Assembly: GCF_030384885.1 (NCBI RefSeq) | Contig: NZ_CP128613.1 | From: Escherichia coli | GTDB lineage: Bacteria > Pseudomonadota > Gammaproteobacteria > Enterobacterales > Enterobacteriaceae | Length of the DNA: 64,000 nt | Reading direction: 5' to 3' (one strand) | In this document: positions 32,523-42,155 of the stretch, in pieces | How the letters are laid out: each line of letters begins with the position of its first letter | How positions within the stretch are numbered: the first letter of the stretch is position 1 | Notes under the pieces: generated by a model | The model's input: only the letters and a program-made list of their open reading frames with translations | The model's database searches: none | What the model was told of the DNA's origin: nothing | Position numbers and translations under genes: made by a program

Positions 32523-32550
32523 ATGCTCTGGATAAGGATTATCCAATTCT

Positions 32551-32660
32551 AAAAAAAAGCCCGGACGACTGTTCGGGCTTGTCTTTTTATATGTTGGAAA
32601 ATCAGTGGCAATGCAATGGCCCAACAGAAAATAAAATCTGTGACAATAAAGGCATATAAC
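32551..32660 (-). ncRNA. micC: MicC sRNA (Hfq-dependent repressor of ompC)
   Basis: Reverse complement of this interval matches the recalled MicC sequence GTTATATGCCTTTATTGTCACAG...GCCCGAACAGTCGTCCGGGCTTTTTTTT, including its intrinsic terminator. Confidence 0.85.
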
Positions 32661-32887
32661 CCGCGCAGAATAACGTATAGCAAATTAAAAGTATAATTTT
32701 TATTTTGTATGTATTACCTTCAATACATTCACCATACTTATTATCATTTCATAAGAATTATTTGATTAAGATTTAACTTAAGGCGTAACAAATGATATTT
32801 ATCGGCTAACGGAACTTCTCCTTTAGGATGTTTTTACTCCCCGAAGCCGGGGTAAAAGGCAAATAAAATAACTAAAGGATTTATTCA

Positions 32888-34021
32888 ATGAAAAGCAAAG
32901 CACTGGCACTCTTAATTCCGTCCCTGCTTGCAGCAGGTGCTGCACATGCAGCCGAAGTTTATAATAAAGACGGCAACAAATTAGATCTGTATGGCAAAGT
33001 TGATGGCCTGCATTATTTTTCTGATAATTCAGCGAAAGATGGCGACCAGAGCTATGCGCGTCTGGGTTTTAAAGGCGAAACCCAAATTAACGATCAACTT
33101 ACTGGCTACGGTCAATGGGAATACAATATTCAGGCAAACAACACTGAATCTTCAAAAAACCAGTCATGGACCCGTCTGGCATTTGCCGGACTGAAATTTG
33201 CAGATTACGGTTCTTTCGATTACGGACGTAATTATGGCGTAATGTACGACATCGAAGGCTGGACCGATATGCTGCCTGAATTTGGCGGTGACTCTTATAC
33301 CAATGCAGACAACTTTATGACTGGTCGTGCCAATGGCGTCGCGACTTATCGTAACACTGATTTCTTCGGTCTGGTAAATGGTCTGAACTTCGCGGTGCAG
33401 TATCAAGGTAACAACGAAGGAGCCAGTAATGGTCAGGAAGGCACCAACAACGGACGTGATGTTCGCCATGAAAACGGTGACGGCTGGGGTCTTTCCACAA
33501 CATATGATTTAGGCATGGGCTTTAGCGCTGGTGCGGCATACACCTCTTCTGACCGCACCAATGACCAGGTTAACCATACTGCGGCGGGTGGTGATAAAGC
33601 AGACGCGTGGACTGCTGGGCTAAAATACGATGCTAACAATATTTACCTGGCAACCATGTATTCAGAAACGCGTAATATGACCCCGTTTGGCGACAGCGAT
33701 TATGCTGTTGCAAACAAAACCCAGAACTTTGAAGTCACTGCACAGTACCAGTTTGATTTTGGTCTGCGTCCGGCAGTCTCTTTCCTGATGTCTAAAGGCC
33801 GTGACCTGCACGCTGCCGGTGGTGCAGACAACCCGGCAGGTGTTGATGATAAAGATCTGGTAAAATACGCCGATGTTGGCGCGACTTACTATTTCAATAA
33901 AAATATGTCCACTTACGTTGACTATAAAATCAACCTGTTGGATGAAGATGACAGCTTCTACGCTGCCAACGGCATCTCTACCGATGATATTGTCGCTTTA
34001 GGTCTGGTTTATCAGTTCTAA
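32888..34021 (+). CDS. ompN: outer-membrane porin OmpN
   Basis: 377-aa ORF with signal peptide and porin C-terminus ...GLVYQF. Confidence 0.92.
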
Positions 34022-34026
34022 ATCCT

Positions 34027-34054
34027 CCTGCCCGCTGTTATGGCGGGCTTTTTC
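34027..34054 (+). terminator. ompN intrinsic terminator
   Basis: Hairpin gcccgctgttatggcgggc followed by TTTTT. Confidence 0.7.
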
Positions 34055-34080
34055 TGCTTATTCTTCCTCCTTTGATCTAA

Positions 34081-34596
<516 letters not shown>

Positions 34597-34602
34597 CACT
34601 AA

Positions 34603-34629
34603 CGCCCGCACATTGCTGCGGGCTTTTTG
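34603..34629 (+). terminator. uspF intrinsic terminator
   Basis: Hairpin cccgcacattgctgcggg followed by CTTTTTG. Confidence 0.7.
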
Positions 34630-34771
34630 ATTCATTTCGCAAATGTGCTGACATTTTCCCCTCTAATCCGTACCATACACGCCACAGTTTTTATATCAGA
34701 TTTCTTATGCTGGGCGTTCCGGCATGACGCATACTCTTCTGATGCCATATAACGAATTGAGTCGCTTTTAA

Positions 34772-35707
34772 ATGTCGCAAAATCAAGAAATTAGTAAGAA
34801 AGAACAATACAATCTGAACAAATTACAAAAACGTCTGCGTCGTAACGTGGGCGAAGCCATTGCTGACTTCAATATGATTGAAGAAGGCGATCGCATCATG
34901 GTTTGCCTCTCCGGGGGTAAAGACAGCTATACCATGCTGGAGATTCTGCGCAATTTGCAGCAAAGCGCGCCAATCAATTTTTCGCTGGTGGCTGTTAACC
35001 TCGATCAAAAGCAACCGGGCTTCCCGGAACACGTTCTGCCCGAGTATCTTGAAAAGCTGGGCATTGAGTACAAGATTGTGGAAGAGAACACTTACGGTAT
35101 CGTGAAAGAGAAGATTCCGGAGGGCAAAACCACTTGCTCACTGTGTTCTCGTCTTCGTCGCGGAATTCTTTACCGTACCGCAACGGAACTGGGAGCGACG
35201 AAGATCGCGCTGGGTCACCATCGTGACGATATCCTGCAAACGTTGTTCTTAAATATGTTCTACGGCGGCAAGATGAAAGGTATGCCTCCGAAACTGATGA
35301 GCGATGATGGCAAACATATTGTGATTCGTCCGCTGGCCTACTGCCGCGAGAAAGATATTCAGCGCTTTGCCGATGCAAAAGCGTTCCCGATTATTCCGTG
35401 CAACCTGTGCGGTTCACAACCTAACCTGCAACGTCAGGTGATTGCTGACATGTTGCGTGACTGGGATAAACGTTATCCGGGGCGTATCGAGACGATGTTC
35501 AGCGCGATGCAGAATGTGGTGCCGTCGCATCTGTGCGATACCAACCTGTTCGATTTCAAAGGCATTACCCACGGTTCTGAAGTGGTTAACGGGGGTGATC
35601 TGGCGTTTGATCGCGAAGAGATCCCTCTACAACCGGCGGGTTGGCAGCCTGAAGAAGATGAAAATCAGTTGGATGAGTTACGACTGAATGTGGTTGAAGT
35701 GAAATAA
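34772..35707 (+). CDS. ttcA: tRNA 2-thiocytidine(32) synthetase TtcA, prophage-free allele
   Basis: 311-aa ORF with PP-loop SGGKDS and Cys motifs; the N-terminus [14 protein letters not shown] differs from the recalled K-12 Rac-lysogen form MQENQQITKKEQYN. Confidence 0.9.
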
Positions 35708-35788
35708 CCCGGATAGCGCCCGATGCGCAAGCTTATCGGGCTACTCTTATGGAGGCCGGATAAGACGCGGCCAGCGTCGCATCCGGCA
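35708..35788. repeat. REP/BIME element (two REP units)
   Basis: cccggatagcgcccgatgcgcaagcttatcgggcta and gccggataagacgcggccagcgtcgcatccggca between the convergent ttcA and dbpA. Confidence 0.7.
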
Positions 35789-35835
35789 ATCCCGAAGAAG
35801 ATGTTTACTCTTGCACCCTGCGATTCAACATTTCA

Positions 35836-37209
35836 TTATTTTAATAACCGCACCCGGCACGTTTTTCCTTTAATCTTCCCGCCCTGTAACTGTTTCCATG
35901 CTTTATGAGCAACAGCCTGACGCACCGCAACATAGACATGCGCCGGATGCACGGCGATTTTGCCAATATCTGCGCCATCAAGCCCGATATCTCCTGTCAG
36001 CGCACCTAATACATCACCCGGGCGCATTTTGGCTTTTTTCCCGCCATCGATACATAACGTTGCCATTTCTGCTTCCAGCGGCACAATGGAACTATTAACT
36101 GGCGGCGTTTGCCAGTTAAGTTTTATCTGCAACATGTCAGAAATGATATTGGCCCGCTGTGCTTCTTCCGGGGCACAGAAACTGATCGCCAGACCGCTAT
36201 TTCCTGCACGCGCTGTACGCCCGATGCGATGTACATGAACTTCAGGGTCCCACGCCAGTTCAAAGTTCACTACCAGCTCAAGCGATTTAATATCAAGACC
36301 ACGCGCAGCAACATCCGTCGCAACCAGCACACGAGCGCTACCGTTAGCAAAACGTACCAGGGTCTGATCGCGGTCACGTTGCTCCAGATCGCCATGTAAC
36401 GACAATGCACTTTGCCCTATGTCATTCAGCGCGTCGCAGACAGCCTGACAATCTTTTTTGGTATTGCAAAACACCACGCAAGAGGATGGCTGATGCAAAC
36501 TTAATAACCGTTGCAACAGCGGAATTTTGCCTTTGCTGGATGTCTCATAAAATTGTTGTTCAATGGGAGGCAGAGCATCTGTTGAGTCAATTTCAATCGC
36601 CAATGGATCGCGTTGCACTCGTCCGCTGATTGCGGTGATGGCTTCCGGCCAGGTTGCCGAAAACAGAAGCGTCTGTCGAGATGCTGGCGCAAAACGGATA
36701 ACATCATCAATGGCATCGCTAAATCCCATATCCAGCATGCGATCGGCTTCATCCATCACCAGCATATTCAACGCATCCAGTGATACCGTGCCTTTTTGCA
36801 GATGGTCCAGCAAACGACCCGGGGTTGCCACGATAATATGCGGCGCATGTTGCAACGAATCACGCTGCATACCGAACGGTTGACCACCGCACAAAGTCAA
36901 AATTTTGGTATTTGGCAGAAAACGCGCCAGCCGACGCAATTCACCTGCCACCTGATCCGCCAGTTCACGCGTAGGGCACAGCACTAAAGCCTGGGTCTGA
37001 AATAGCGACGCATCAATTTTCTGTAGCAGCCCGAGGCCAAAAGCCGCCGTTTTGCCGCTGCCGGTTTTCGCCTGCACGCGAACATCTTTTCCGGCAAGGA
37101 TCGCCGGAAGCGCGGCGGCCTGCACCGGCGTCATAGTTAAATAACCCAACTCATTAAGGTTCGTGAGTTGGGCGGGAGGCAAAACATTCAGGGTAGAAAA
37201 AGCGGTCAC
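35836..37209 (-). CDS. dbpA: ATP-dependent DEAD-box RNA helicase DbpA
   Basis: 457-aa ORF, GTG start; Q-motif, Walker A AKTGSGKT, DEAD box VMDEAD, SAT. Confidence 0.93.
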   Translation of the reverse strand: MTAFSTLNVLPPAQLTNLNELGYLTMTPVQAAALPAILAGKDVRVQAKTGSGKTAAFGLGLLQKIDASLFQTQALVLCPTRELADQVAGELRRLARFLPNTKILTLCGGQPFGMQRDSLQHAPHIIVATPGRLLDHLQKGTVSLDALNMLVMDEADRMLDMGFSDAIDDVIRFAPASRQTLLFSATWPEAITAISGRVQRDPLAIEIDSTDALPPIEQQFYETSSKGKIPLLQRLLSLHQPSSCVVFCNTKKDCQAVCDALNDIGQSALSLHGDLEQRDRDQTLVRFANGSARVLVATDVAARGLDIKSLELVVNFELAWDPEVHVHRIGRTARAGNSGLAISFCAPEEAQRANIISDMLQIKLNWQTPPVNSSIVPLEAEMATLCIDGGKKAKMRPGDVLGALTGDIGLDGADIGKIAVHPAHVYVAVRQAVAHKAWKQLQGGKIKGKTCRVRLLK

Positions 37210-37239
37210 AATCTGTTCTCGTGGTCATCGACGCAAAAA

Positions 37240-37413
37240 TTAGCAAGCGCGTATCCTCGCAGATCTACGCTCACGATGCGACAATTTAATCGGTTCTTCA
37301 TCGGGTGGTGGGTCAGGCATGGGTTGCGGGCGAGGGATTGGATCGGGCACTGGAACAGGATCGCCAGGAATCGGTTCAGGGACAGGAATTTGCAAATAAA
37401 TGAGTGTCGTCAT
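37240..37413 (-). CDS. 57-aa proline-rich small protein upstream of dbpA (absent from the ORF track)
   Basis: ATG at 37413 preceded by GGAGGG with ~5 nt spacing; hand translation MTTLIYLQIPVPEPIPGDPVPVPDPIPRPQPMPDPPPDEEPIKLSHRERRSARIRAC*; stop 28 nt before the dbpA start. Confidence 0.5.
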   Translation of the reverse strand: MTTLIYLQIPVPEPIPGDPVPVPDPIPRPQPMPDPPPDEEPIKLSHRERRSARIRAC

Positions 37414-37470
37414 ATTTCCCTCCGGTCATTGGGTGGACTCTTAAAGGGTAGACGCTGATATATAACAGGC

Positions 37471-37592
37471 AAAAAAAAGCCGACTCATCAAAGTCGGCGT
37501 CGTACGAATCAATTGTGCTATGCAGTAATTCAAAAAAGGAAGTAAGACAATATGGAGCGCAACGCCCATCGCTTGACGTTGCATTCACCTGC
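37471..37592 (-). ncRNA. fnrS: FnrS sRNA (FNR-activated, Hfq-dependent)
   Basis: Reverse complement matches the recalled FnrS sequence GCAGGTGAATGCAACGTCAAGCGATGGGCG...GACGCCGACTTTGATGAGTCGGCTTTTTTTT, with its terminator. Confidence 0.85.
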
Positions 37593-38925: not shown

Positions 38926-40158
38926 ATGATTACGCACAACTTCAATACCCTGGACTTACTCACCAGTCCTGTCTGGATCGTTTCGCCCTTTGAGGAACAG
39001 TTAATTTATGCCAACAGCGCGGCGCGACTGTTGATGCAAGACCTCACGTTTAGTCAGCTACGAACCGGTCCCTATTCCGTCTCCTCACAAAAAGAACTGC
39101 CGAAATACCTCTCCGATCTGCAAAACCAACACGATATTATCGAAATCCTCACCGTTCAACGTAAAGAAGAGGAAACAGCATTAAGCTGTCGGCTTGTTTT
39201 GCGAGAGCTGACAGAAGCAGAACCGGTGATTATTTTCGAAGGTATCGAAGCACCGGCAACGCTGGGTTTAAAAGCCAGTCGCTCGGCAAATTATCAGCGC
39301 AAAAAACAAGGTTTTTATGCGCGCTTTTTTCTGACTAACTCTGCACCAATGTTGTTGATTGACCCCTCACGAGATGGCCAAATCGTCGATGCTAACCTCG
39401 CCGCGCTCAATTTCTATGGTTATAACCATGAAACGATGTGCCAGAAACATACCTGGGAAATTAATATGCTCGGGCGTCGCGTCATGCCTATCATGCATGA
39501 AATCTCGCATTTACCCGGTGGTCATAAGCCTTTGAATTTTGTTCATAAACTGGCGGATGGTTCGACTCGTCATGTGCAGACCTATGCTGGGCCGATTGAA
39601 ATTTATGGCGACAAGCTCATGTTATGTATTGTGCATGATATTACGGAGCAAAAACGGCTGGAGGAGCAGCTGGAACATGCTGCCCACCATGACGCGATGA
39701 CCGGATTACTGAATCGGCGCCAGTTTTATCACATTACCGAGCCAGGCCAAATGCAGCACCTCGCCATCACTCAGGATTACAGCTTATTGCTCATCGACAC
39801 CGATCGTTTTAAACACATTAACGATCTCTATGGGCATTCTAAAGGTGATGAGGTGTTATGCGCCCTCGCCCGCACTCTCGAAAGTTGCGCTCGCAAAGGC
39901 GATTTGGTGTTTCGTTGGGGAGGCGAAGAGTTTGTCTTATTGCTACCAAGAACCCCACTGGATACCGCGCTTTCGCTGGCTGAAACTATCCGCGTAAGCG
40001 TGACAAAAGTGAGTATTTCGGGCTTACCACGCTTTACCGTCAGCATTGGTGTGGCGCATCACGAAGGAAATGAAAGCATCGATGAACTGTTTAAACGCGT
40101 TGATGATGCTTTGTATCGGGCGAAAAATGATGGACGCAACCGCGTGCTGGCGGCATAA
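38926..40158 (+). CDS. dgcM: diguanylate cyclase DgcM (PAS-GGDEF)
   Basis: 410-aa ORF starting MITHNFNTLDLL; GGDEF active site RWGGEEF; the listed ORF carries a 20-codon upstream extension. Confidence 0.9.
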   Translation: MITHNFNTLDLLTSPVWIVSPFEEQLIYANSAARLLMQDLTFSQLRTGPYSVSSQKELPKYLSDLQNQHDIIEILTVQRKEEETALSCRLVLRELTEAEPVIIFEGIEAPATLGLKASRSANYQRKKQGFYARFFLTNSAPMLLIDPSRDGQIVDANLAALNFYGYNHETMCQKHTWEINMLGRRVMPIMHEISHLPGGHKPLNFVHKLADGSTRHVQTYAGPIEIYGDKLMLCIVHDITEQKRLEEQLEHAAHHDAMTGLLNRRQFYHITEPGQMQHLAITQDYSLLLIDTDRFKHINDLYGHSKGDEVLCALARTLESCARKGDLVFRWGGEEFVLLLPRTPLDTALSLAETIRVSVTKVSISGLPRFTVSIGVAHHEGNESIDELFKRVDDALYRAKNDGRNRVLAA

Positions 40159-40178: not shown

Positions 40179-40742
40179 TCAACGACTGCGCTTAGCGTGG
40201 CGCTCCCAGTTTTCTTGCTTTGCCTGCGCCGTTTTACGTAGTGCGACGTAACACGCCCCGCTGCCGCCATGATGCGGTAGCGCGGTACAATATGCCTGGA
40301 CATCATCAAATTCGGTCAACCAGCGCGCCACATAGCTGCGGACAATATTGGCATGCGATTTATCTTCCCGCCCTTTACCATGAATAATCAGCACATTACG
40401 CAAACCATCCGCCAGGGCTTGTTGAATGAAACTGAACACCATTTTGCGGCACTCTTCCACCGGCTGGCGCAAAAGATTCAGGCTCGCCTGTTGCGGATAT
40501 TTACCACTGCGCAGCTTATCCAGCACCCCATGTTGCAACCCTTCCCGCCGAAACTCCAGCGGCTGGCTTAGCGGGATGATGTCGAGAAATCCGGTGGTGA
40601 GGAAATTATCAAGTTGCAGCGTGTCGATACGCTGCGGCGCACGTTGGTTACGCGTTGGATGCCAGTGGACATCTGTAGCACGTTTCAGCGGCTGGACATC
40701 TTCCATGGCGTCAAGAAACAGCGATTTGTCGTCAAGGTTCAT
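40179..40742 (-). CDS. smrA: Smr-domain DNA endonuclease SmrA
   Basis: 187-aa ORF with Smr domain (LIIHGKGR). Confidence 0.85.
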   Translation of the reverse strand: MNLDDKSLFLDAMEDVQPLKRATDVHWHPTRNQRAPQRIDTLQLDNFLTTGFLDIIPLSQPLEFRREGLQHGVLDKLRSGKYPQQASLNLLRQPVEECRKMVFSFIQQALADGLRNVLIIHGKGREDKSHANIVRSYVARWLTEFDDVQAYCTALPHHGGSGACYVALRKTAQAKQENWERHAKRSR

Positions 40743-40969
40743 GTTACATCCTCCCGCAATTAAGAGCGCGATATGATAACCAGACCGGGTCGGTCCAACA
40801 ACGTATTACCCAAAATTCCAGTAATAAGTTCCAAATGTTGCCGATATTTTAAGCAAAATGCTTATGCATGATTATTCATTCACGATATTAATAATGTAAC
40901 TTATATTTTCGTGAAATCTGTCACTGAAGAAAATTGGCAACTAAAGGTTAAAACCGTTATAACACAGTC

Positions 40970-41063
40970 ACCGGCGCAGAGGAGACCATGCCGGATTTAA
41001 GACGCGGATGCACTGCTGTGTGTACTGTAGAGTCTGGCGGATGTCGACAGACTCTATTTTTTT
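40970..41063 (+). ncRNA. mcaS: McaS sRNA (formerly IsrA/IS061)
   Basis: Matches the recalled McaS sequence ACCGGCGCAGAGGAGAC...GTAGAGTCTGGCGGATGTCGACAGACTCTATTTTTTTAT with terminal hairpin and T-run. Confidence 0.8.
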
Positions 41064-41071
41064 ATGCAGTT

Positions 41072-41980
41072 TTAACTTTGCAGATAGCCGCATTCTCGCC
41101 GAAATTGCGTGATTAATGACGCGGTCAGTGGTGTCTGGCGACTATCACGCCGCTGAATCAAATAATAGGCCGCTTTCGGTAAAATTTCGCTAACCGGCAA
41201 CATCACCAGCCCCTGTCCGTGCAAGGGATCGCAGCCCATTTCTTCAGGTAGTATGCTGAGAAAATCGCTTTTTGCCACCAGACTGATACAGGCTGAAAAC
41301 GTCTCGCAGACTACGCCGACCTGTGGCGTTTGCGCCTGATCGTCAAGCAATTCACTCAACTGTTTGTAGTAGCTGCCGTGTGGCGTCGGCATTGTCCAGC
41401 TGTAGTCCAGTAACTGTTTGATCGAACGGGCACCAATGGCGGGATGTCCCGGGCGGCAAAAGATCGCGAATTGCTTTTCCAGTAATTTCTCAAAAGTAAA
41501 TTCGTGGTCGTAGGGTCCCTGATAATAGGTATTGATGGTGAAATCCAGTTCTCCCTGGCGCAATTCATTAATCATCGACACCAGTTGCCCTTCCATAATG
41601 CGTACTTTTACCTGCGGATGCTGCTGATGAAAACGAGATATGACAGCTGGCATCAGACTGCGGGAAATACTGGCCCCCATGCCGATATTAATTTGCCCTG
41701 CCAGTTGCCCTTGTCGTTGGCGAATATCCTCTTGCGCTGCGCGCAGCTCTTCAAGAATAAGACTGGCGTGCTGATAAAAACTTTCGCCGGCATCAGTTAA
41801 CGTCACGCCTTTACTACGGCGAAAAAAGAGTTGCGCCGCTAACCCTTCTTCCAGCTCCTGAATAGATTTACTCAGTGCCGGTTGCGACATATTCAACATG
41901 CGGCTCGCTCCGCGAATGCTGCCCTGACGAGCCACTTCAACAAAAGCCCGAATTTGATGAATTTTTACCTGAAAAGCCAT
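41072..41980 (-). CDS. abgR: LysR-type transcriptional regulator AbgR
   Basis: 302-aa ORF with N-terminal LysR helix-turn-helix; divergent from abgA. Confidence 0.9.
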   Translation of the reverse strand: MAFQVKIHQIRAFVEVARQGSIRGASRMLNMSQPALSKSIQELEEGLAAQLFFRRSKGVTLTDAGESFYQHASLILEELRAAQEDIRQRQGQLAGQINIGMGASISRSLMPAVISRFHQQHPQVKVRIMEGQLVSMINELRQGELDFTINTYYQGPYDHEFTFEKLLEKQFAIFCRPGHPAIGARSIKQLLDYSWTMPTPHGSYYKQLSELLDDQAQTPQVGVVCETFSACISLVAKSDFLSILPEEMGCDPLHGQGLVMLPVSEILPKAAYYLIQRRDSRQTPLTASLITQFRRECGYLQS

Positions 41981-42155
41981 GACGCCACCGATAACCGTTA
42001 TTTATCAGACCAAAGAAACTGGCATCTACTTTAATGCAGATGATTATGTCAGGGTAATTTATGAACGGTTAAAACTGTGAAAAATCAGTTAGTGATAAGT
42101 AAAAACTATCGCTACGTGAACCGGGTCACACTTTTTACTGATGACGGGAAAGGTT

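Follow-up and report, generated by a model that had tools for sequence, protein, structure and literature searches.

What does a plus-strand terminator end when both genes around it are read from the opposite strand? The question arises in a 64,000-nt stretch of an Escherichia coli genome (hereafter the window), where a hairpin followed by a run of T residues lies between the minus-strand genes smrA (40179..40742) and abgR (41072..41980). An earlier note on this DNA had read the arrangement as the 3' end of a small RNA, McaS (also named IsrA), placed at 40970-41063 with csgD, flhD and pgaA as regulated genes.

Identity and location of the small RNA gene

When the whole window was searched against Rfam 15 at gathering thresholds, three matches were returned, among them one to the McaS/IsrA family (RF00115) at 40970..41065 on the plus strand, with 117 bits (E 3.9e-21) against a gathering score of 42. 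The match runs over the entire model, from position 1 to position 96 of 96. In the genome of E. coli K-12 MG1655, mcaS (b4426, 'small regulatory RNA McaS', 94 nt) is annotated between abgR and smrA, and this 94-nt gene aligns to 40970..41063 of the window; the Rfam feature is 96 nt long, and the K-12 annotation ends at 41063. The RNA of the window and that of K-12 are identical at 95 of 96 nt, with one substitution, and have the same neighbours. For these neighbours, the list of open reading frames (ORFs) agrees with what RefSeq annotates on an identical stretch of 501 bp: smrA is the divergent upstream neighbour of mcaS and abgR the convergent downstream one, in the same order and orientation as in K-12. 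No plus-strand gene is located between smrA and the hairpin; the nearest one, dgcM, lies beyond smrA and ends at 40158. We conclude that the locus is almost certainly mcaS (isrA, IS061), the gene for a trans-acting small RNA of ~95 nt. The name given in the earlier note is thereby borne out by a full-length family match well above the gathering score, its coordinates coincide with the extent of the 94-nt K-12 annotation, and its placement of the RNA between two minus-strand genes, with no plus-strand coding sequence upstream, agrees with both the ORFs and the annotation.

As a known gene in its known place, mcaS in its usual position between smrA and abgR, the locus is an ordinary one that was already known. 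Its discovery value is small: the characterisation of McaS as a regulator of the motility-biofilm switch dates back to 2012-2013, and both Rfam and the K-12 annotation include it. In the RefSeq/PGAP records of E. coli, every row among the matches listed gives 'none' as the feature at mcaS, and the gene is named only in the curated K-12 record. The mcaS locus would look like an empty intergenic region in a scan that relies on RefSeq/PGAP records.

Two other small RNAs have full-length Rfam matches in the window. FnrS (RF01796, 134.8 bits), an FNR-activated small RNA, is found at 37475..37592 on the minus strand, between ynaL and zntB as in K-12, and MicC (RF00121, 125.3 bits) at 32543..32663 on the minus strand, upstream of ompN as in K-12. 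The distance between micC and fnrS is 4.8 kb in the window (about 32600..37500) versus 27.9 kb in K-12, where the 23-kb cryptic prophage Rac (1411899-1434958) adjoins ttcA. In the window, as in strain 2013C-4282, ttcA lies directly beside uspF, and the window is therefore devoid of the Rac prophage at the ttcA site.

The terminator and its relation to abgR

The 3' part of the RNA forms an intrinsic terminator (41027..41063, plus strand) composed of a 10-bp outer stem (41027-41036 with 41048-41057) and two inner pairs (41038-39 with 41045-46), that is 12 pairs between RNA positions 58-67/79-88 and 69-70/76-77. Its arms agagtctg (41029-41036) and cagactct (41048-41055) are followed by one A and then by seven T residues (41057-41063), and the description of this element in the earlier note agrees with both the sequence and the RNA fold. 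The 3' 40 nt of the McaS RNA fold with -15.8 kcal/mol. In an alignment of 15 sequences, 100% of the cells of the terminator helix are paired, and RNAalifold recovers the terminator as the sole helix. A simple scan for consensus terminators gave no match at mcaS, which reflects a limit of the scanner and is not counter-evidence, since the scanner accepts only unbroken stems with loops of 3-8 nt and the outer stem encloses 11 nt here. Transcription would thus be expected to stop at 41027-41063. A terminator with a U-tail is the usual 3' Hfq-binding module of small RNAs of this kind, and one is present at the 3' end of McaS.

The same hairpin might be seen as the terminator of the convergent abgR gene only, or as a bidirectional terminator, with no independent small RNA at the locus. 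The abgR stop codon (41072-41074, minus strand) is indeed 15 nt from the hairpin, and a symmetric, GC-rich stem could presumably halt a polymerase arriving from either side. On the minus strand, however, the hairpin is followed by CAGTACACACAG, which lacks a U-tract, and the 57 nt that precede the hairpin on the plus strand match the McaS model and carry both a seed for pairing with csgD and GGA motifs. The promoter of mcaS is moreover conserved, and ~1,300 genomes in which abgR has decayed to a remnant have kept the RNA gene together with this promoter. It is therefore very improbable that the hairpin serves abgR and nothing else. A secondary role as a (bidirectional) terminator of abgR is possible and would be compatible with McaS, which we retain as the primary product of the locus.

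Putative promoter and CRP site

Upstream of the RNA, a -35-like hexamer TTGGCA (5/6, 40934..40939) and a -10-like hexamer TATAAC (5/6, 40958..40963) can be read from the sequence on the plus strand, separated by an 18-nt spacer, the -10 hexamer lying 6 nt before the 5' end of the RNA. Transcription would start at ~40970 from this putative sigma-70-type promoter, with a CRP-like site upstream of it. The promoter scanner missed the TTGGCA/TATAAC pair as it requires a T at position 6 of the -10 hexamer, which ends in C here. The promoter that the scanner proposed (TTCACG/TATATT, 40879-40907) was rejected, as its start would fall ~55 nt too far upstream of mcaS.

The CRP-like site, CGTGA-aatctg-TCACT at 40910..40925, is a pattern match with two mismatches to TGTGA-N6-TCACA, and its centre is at -52.5. 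Classical CRP sites of class I and class II are centred at -61.5 and -41.5, respectively, and the site of mcaS corresponds to neither. The CRP consensus is not enriched in the window as a bare pattern (22 matches versus 27.9 expected). Since the bare pattern does not exceed chance and the position is non-classical, the assignment to CRP rests on the conservation of the site and on the literature, where reviews count McaS among the members of the CRP regulon (PMC3634460). Five E. coli sequences have identical promoter hexamers and an identical CRP-like site, and diverge upstream of ~40893. The TGGCA of the -35, the TATAA of the -10 and the CRP half-sites are retained in E. albertii, E. whittamii and Citrobacter amalonaticus, and the -35 columns T66, G67, G68 and A70 are invariant across 14 sequences. 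Hexamers and half-sites are thus conserved across genera amid diverging surrounding sequence. A better match to the CRP consensus (one mismatch, CGTGAACCGGGTCACA) is found at 42115..42130, in the divergent intergenic region of abgR and abgA, just upstream of abgA.

The 5' hairpin, GGA motifs and small reading frames

In the Rfam consensus structure, the RNA begins with a hairpin (40971..40994, plus strand) in which positions 2-7 pair with positions 20-25 around a 12-nt loop. McaS carries four GGA motifs, the motif bound by CsrA, at RNA positions 12, 24, 37 and 70. The first one (40981-40983) is found in the loop of the 5' hairpin, the second (40993..40995) at the 3' foot of this hairpin, the third (41006..41008) adjoins the csgD seed, and the fourth (41039-41041) is carried by the terminator loop. 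Four is also the number published for McaS (PMC10729762), and two of these motifs are mapped CsrA sites (PMC10729762, PMC4098024). The motifs at positions 12, 37 and 70 are retained in all 15 homologues, the third one (G37 G38 A39) being invariant in the 15 sequences, and the second is not conserved in three of the four Citrobacter sequences nor in the P. vulneris group.

The stem of the 5' hairpin persists in E. coli with altered pairs, the pair 7-20 being G-U, C-G or U-G. Column-wise covariation of the two 5' helices is weak in the MAFFT alignment of 15 sequences (score 0.101 versus 0.102 shuffled), partly owing to a register shift of the 5' hairpin between genera. Given this shift, we replaced the column-wise measure by folding each homologue alone, and found in all of them a 5' hairpin whose loop holds or adjoins the first GGA.

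The 5' part of the RNA also raises the question of a small protein, since the ORF list includes both a 42-codon frame on the plus strand (40988..41116) and an antisense 41-codon frame on the minus strand (40968..41093). The AUG of the former comes 3 nt after GAGGAG, and AGAGGAGACC-AUG resembles a ribosome-binding site. CsrA sites, however, mimic Shine-Dalgarno sequences, and the loop GGA corresponds to the published main CsrA site (PMC10729762). The plus-strand frame passes the terminator to reach its stop at 41116, 50 nt past the 3' end of the RNA, and would thus lack a stop codon within the transcript itself. In other E. coli, in E. albertii and in E. whittamii, AGG stands in place of its AUG, and a 1-nt indel at column 18 shifts both small frames in several Escherichia sequences. 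Readthrough of the terminator, loss of the AUG and the frameshifting indel led us to reject the coding readings on both strands, to which we would give next to no chance, and to treat the region as that of the McaS RNA.

Pairing with mRNAs and mode of action

McaS represses csgD and activates flhD, in both cases via base pairing (PMC3634460, PMC6061853), and its regulation of pgaA is indirect, through titration of CsrA by the GGA motifs (PMC4098024, PMC10729762). The three targets proposed in the earlier note can be divided accordingly: csgD and flhD agree with the literature, and the pairing with csgD is reproduced here, whereas pgaA is regulated by McaS, but indirectly via CsrA. The csgD-pairing seed UGCACUGCUGUGUGUA (41009..41024, plus strand; RNA 40-55) is a 16-nt perfect complement of positions -96..-81 in the 5' UTR of K-12 csgD; 500 dinucleotide-shuffled versions of McaS gave complements of at most 11 nt. 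In a scan with 25-nt windows, RNA 35-55 forms a local duplex of -33.9 kcal/mol with csgD -96..-73, and none of 200 shuffles was as low. The csgD 5' UTR used here is that of K-12, to which 4,744 of the 5,426 complete E. coli genomes are at least 99% identical. The predicted pairing fits the published distal 'binding site 1' of csgD, a site that is needed in vivo for the RNase E-dependent cleavage of csgD mRNA (PMC6061853).

Pairing of McaS with flhD, for which two regions of the 5' UTR are expected to be involved, is known experimentally (PMC3634460). In simple duplex predictions, the best duplex with the flhD 5' UTR has -20.6 kcal/mol, and 35 of 200 shuffles do equally well, so that the predicted flhD pairing does not stand out from chance here. 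Whole-length RNAduplex predictions of McaS against the csgD and flhD UTRs gave z of about -1.4 and are uninformative, as unrestricted duplexes disregard intramolecular structure; we therefore used the longest-complement test and the 25-nt window scans.

Two modes of action can be proposed for the RNA of the window. In a base-pairing mode, which is Hfq-dependent according to the literature, RNA ~35-55 (a single-stranded stretch and the region of hairpin 2) would pair with the far-upstream part of the csgD 5' UTR, leading to cleavage by RNase E and to a reduced synthesis of curli; McaS would also pair with the 5' UTR of flhD, resulting in more flagellar expression. In a sponge mode, exposed GGA motifs would bind CsrA and might thereby relieve the repression that CsrA exerts on pgaA and other targets. 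Family membership, synteny, anatomy, csgD complementarity, GGA motifs and conservation come from the present analysis, and the dependence on Hfq, CsrA and RNase E, the control by CRP and the phenotypes from the literature.

A different route has been put forward, in which McaS acts, besides or instead of Hfq and CsrA, via the RNA polymerase (RNAP) core and ribonucleoprotein particles, and so links transcription to the fate of mRNAs. In one published study, IsrA/McaS is reported to associate specifically with the RNAP core in vivo and in vitro (PMC4824073). Yet the conserved csgD seed, the GGA motifs and the U-tailed terminator are the features expected for the Hfq and CsrA routes, and sequence analysis offers nothing that bears on binding to RNAP. 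We regard this route as unlikely for McaS, and favour action through Hfq-dependent pairing and CsrA titration.

Distribution and conservation

Sequences that cover at least 80% of the 96-nt RNA occur in 5,362 of the 5,426 complete E. coli genomes. Grouped by identity to the RNA of the window, 362 genomes carry exactly the same allele, 3,702 are 95-99% identical (the K-12 allele included) and 1,303 are 90-95% identical. Beyond E. coli, we scanned species-representative genomes with a pattern in which the terminator loop and a few stem bases are the sole fixed positions, and obtained 32 loci, 12 of which are enterobacterial. All 12 are full-length RF00115 matches (75-109 bits) and come from E. 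coli, E. albertii, E. whittamii, two further Escherichia, Citrobacter amalonaticus, a Citrobacter MAG, Pseudescherichia vulneris and an Enterobacteriaceae MAG. The 20 non-enterobacterial matches, in GC-rich genomes, are assumed to be due to chance. Across the 15 aligned sequences, hardly any change is seen at positions 37-93, and the 5' third is variable. Positions 44-67 of the RNA are invariant or nearly so (in at least 14 of 15 sequences), and the search pattern specified only 61, 63 and 65 of those. The csgD seed falls within the near-invariant positions 37-93 although it is absent from the search pattern.

The surroundings of mcaS differ in some of these genomes. About 1,300 complete E. 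coli genomes carry the 90-95% variant, in which the 5' hairpin has another loop and a stem with compensating changes, and both flanks of the gene are remodelled there, with the small RNA, its promoter and the CRP-like site kept intact. On one side, genes for an MFS efflux permease, an HlyD-family protein and an AraC-family regulator lie between smrA and mcaS; on the other, abgRABT is deleted to a 196-bp abgR remnant that adjoins ogt. E. coli ZJ3920 (L003 / L040) is an example of this arrangement, with mcaS at L040:6001-6086. In E. coli FDAARGOS_943 (L004, 601-790), the match to mcaS breaks off within the terminator loop, RNA position 71 being the last base covered. A gene for an IS4-family transposase comes next, and mcaS was probably truncated there by an insertion sequence.

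A natural variant in the 5' hairpin loop

The sole departure from K-12 mcaS is found at RNA position 18 (40987 in the window), which is C here and A in K-12, and belongs to the 12-nt hairpin loop at the 5' end without being part of the GGA. The 362 genomes with the exact allele of the window, among the 5,426 complete ones, share this C18. In ViennaRNA ensembles, the canonical 5' hairpin has a probability of 0.86 with A18 and of 0.24 with C18, and G12 (in the first GGA) is unpaired with a probability of 0.71 in K-12 and of 0.12 in the window allele, the energy margin being ~2-3 kcal/mol in a model that leaves out co-transcriptional folding and protein binding. C18 adds a C18-G41 pair to a predicted alternative fold, and the predicted MFE structure changes, the MFE of the window allele being an alternative 5' structure of -33.1 kcal/mol versus -30.2 kcal/mol for the Rfam structure. 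Should the predicted fold hold in vivo, the natural C18 variant might shift the balance of McaS between CsrA sponging and csgD pairing, a suggestion that we consider a long shot.

Comparison with known systems

The gene of the window is most directly compared with McaS/IsrA/IS061 of K-12, which it resembles in the full-length match to the model, the neighbours and their orientation, the promoter region, the four GGA motifs, the csgD seed and the terminator, and from which it differs by A18C in the 5' hairpin loop. With CsrB and CsrC, McaS has in common that GGA motifs presented in loops titrate CsrA (PMC10729762, PMC4098024). CsrB, however, has 22 GGA motifs versus the four of McaS, and unlike CsrB and CsrC, McaS binds about two CsrA in vitro and also pairs with mRNAs in an Hfq-mediated manner (PMC10729762). 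CsrB and CsrC are not sequence relatives of McaS, the Rfam match at the locus being to McaS alone. A second group for comparison consists of RprA, GcvB, OmrA/B, RydC and RybB, which are, like McaS, Hfq-associated small RNAs that repress csgD by pairing in its 5' UTR; two of them, RprA and GcvB, further resemble McaS in that they trigger cleavage within the same A/U-rich stretch of csgD (PMC6061853). The sequences, promoters and signals of these RNAs are unrelated to those of McaS, and the site of pairing is a further difference: McaS pairs far upstream in csgD, at -96..-73 here, and not at the ribosome-binding site.
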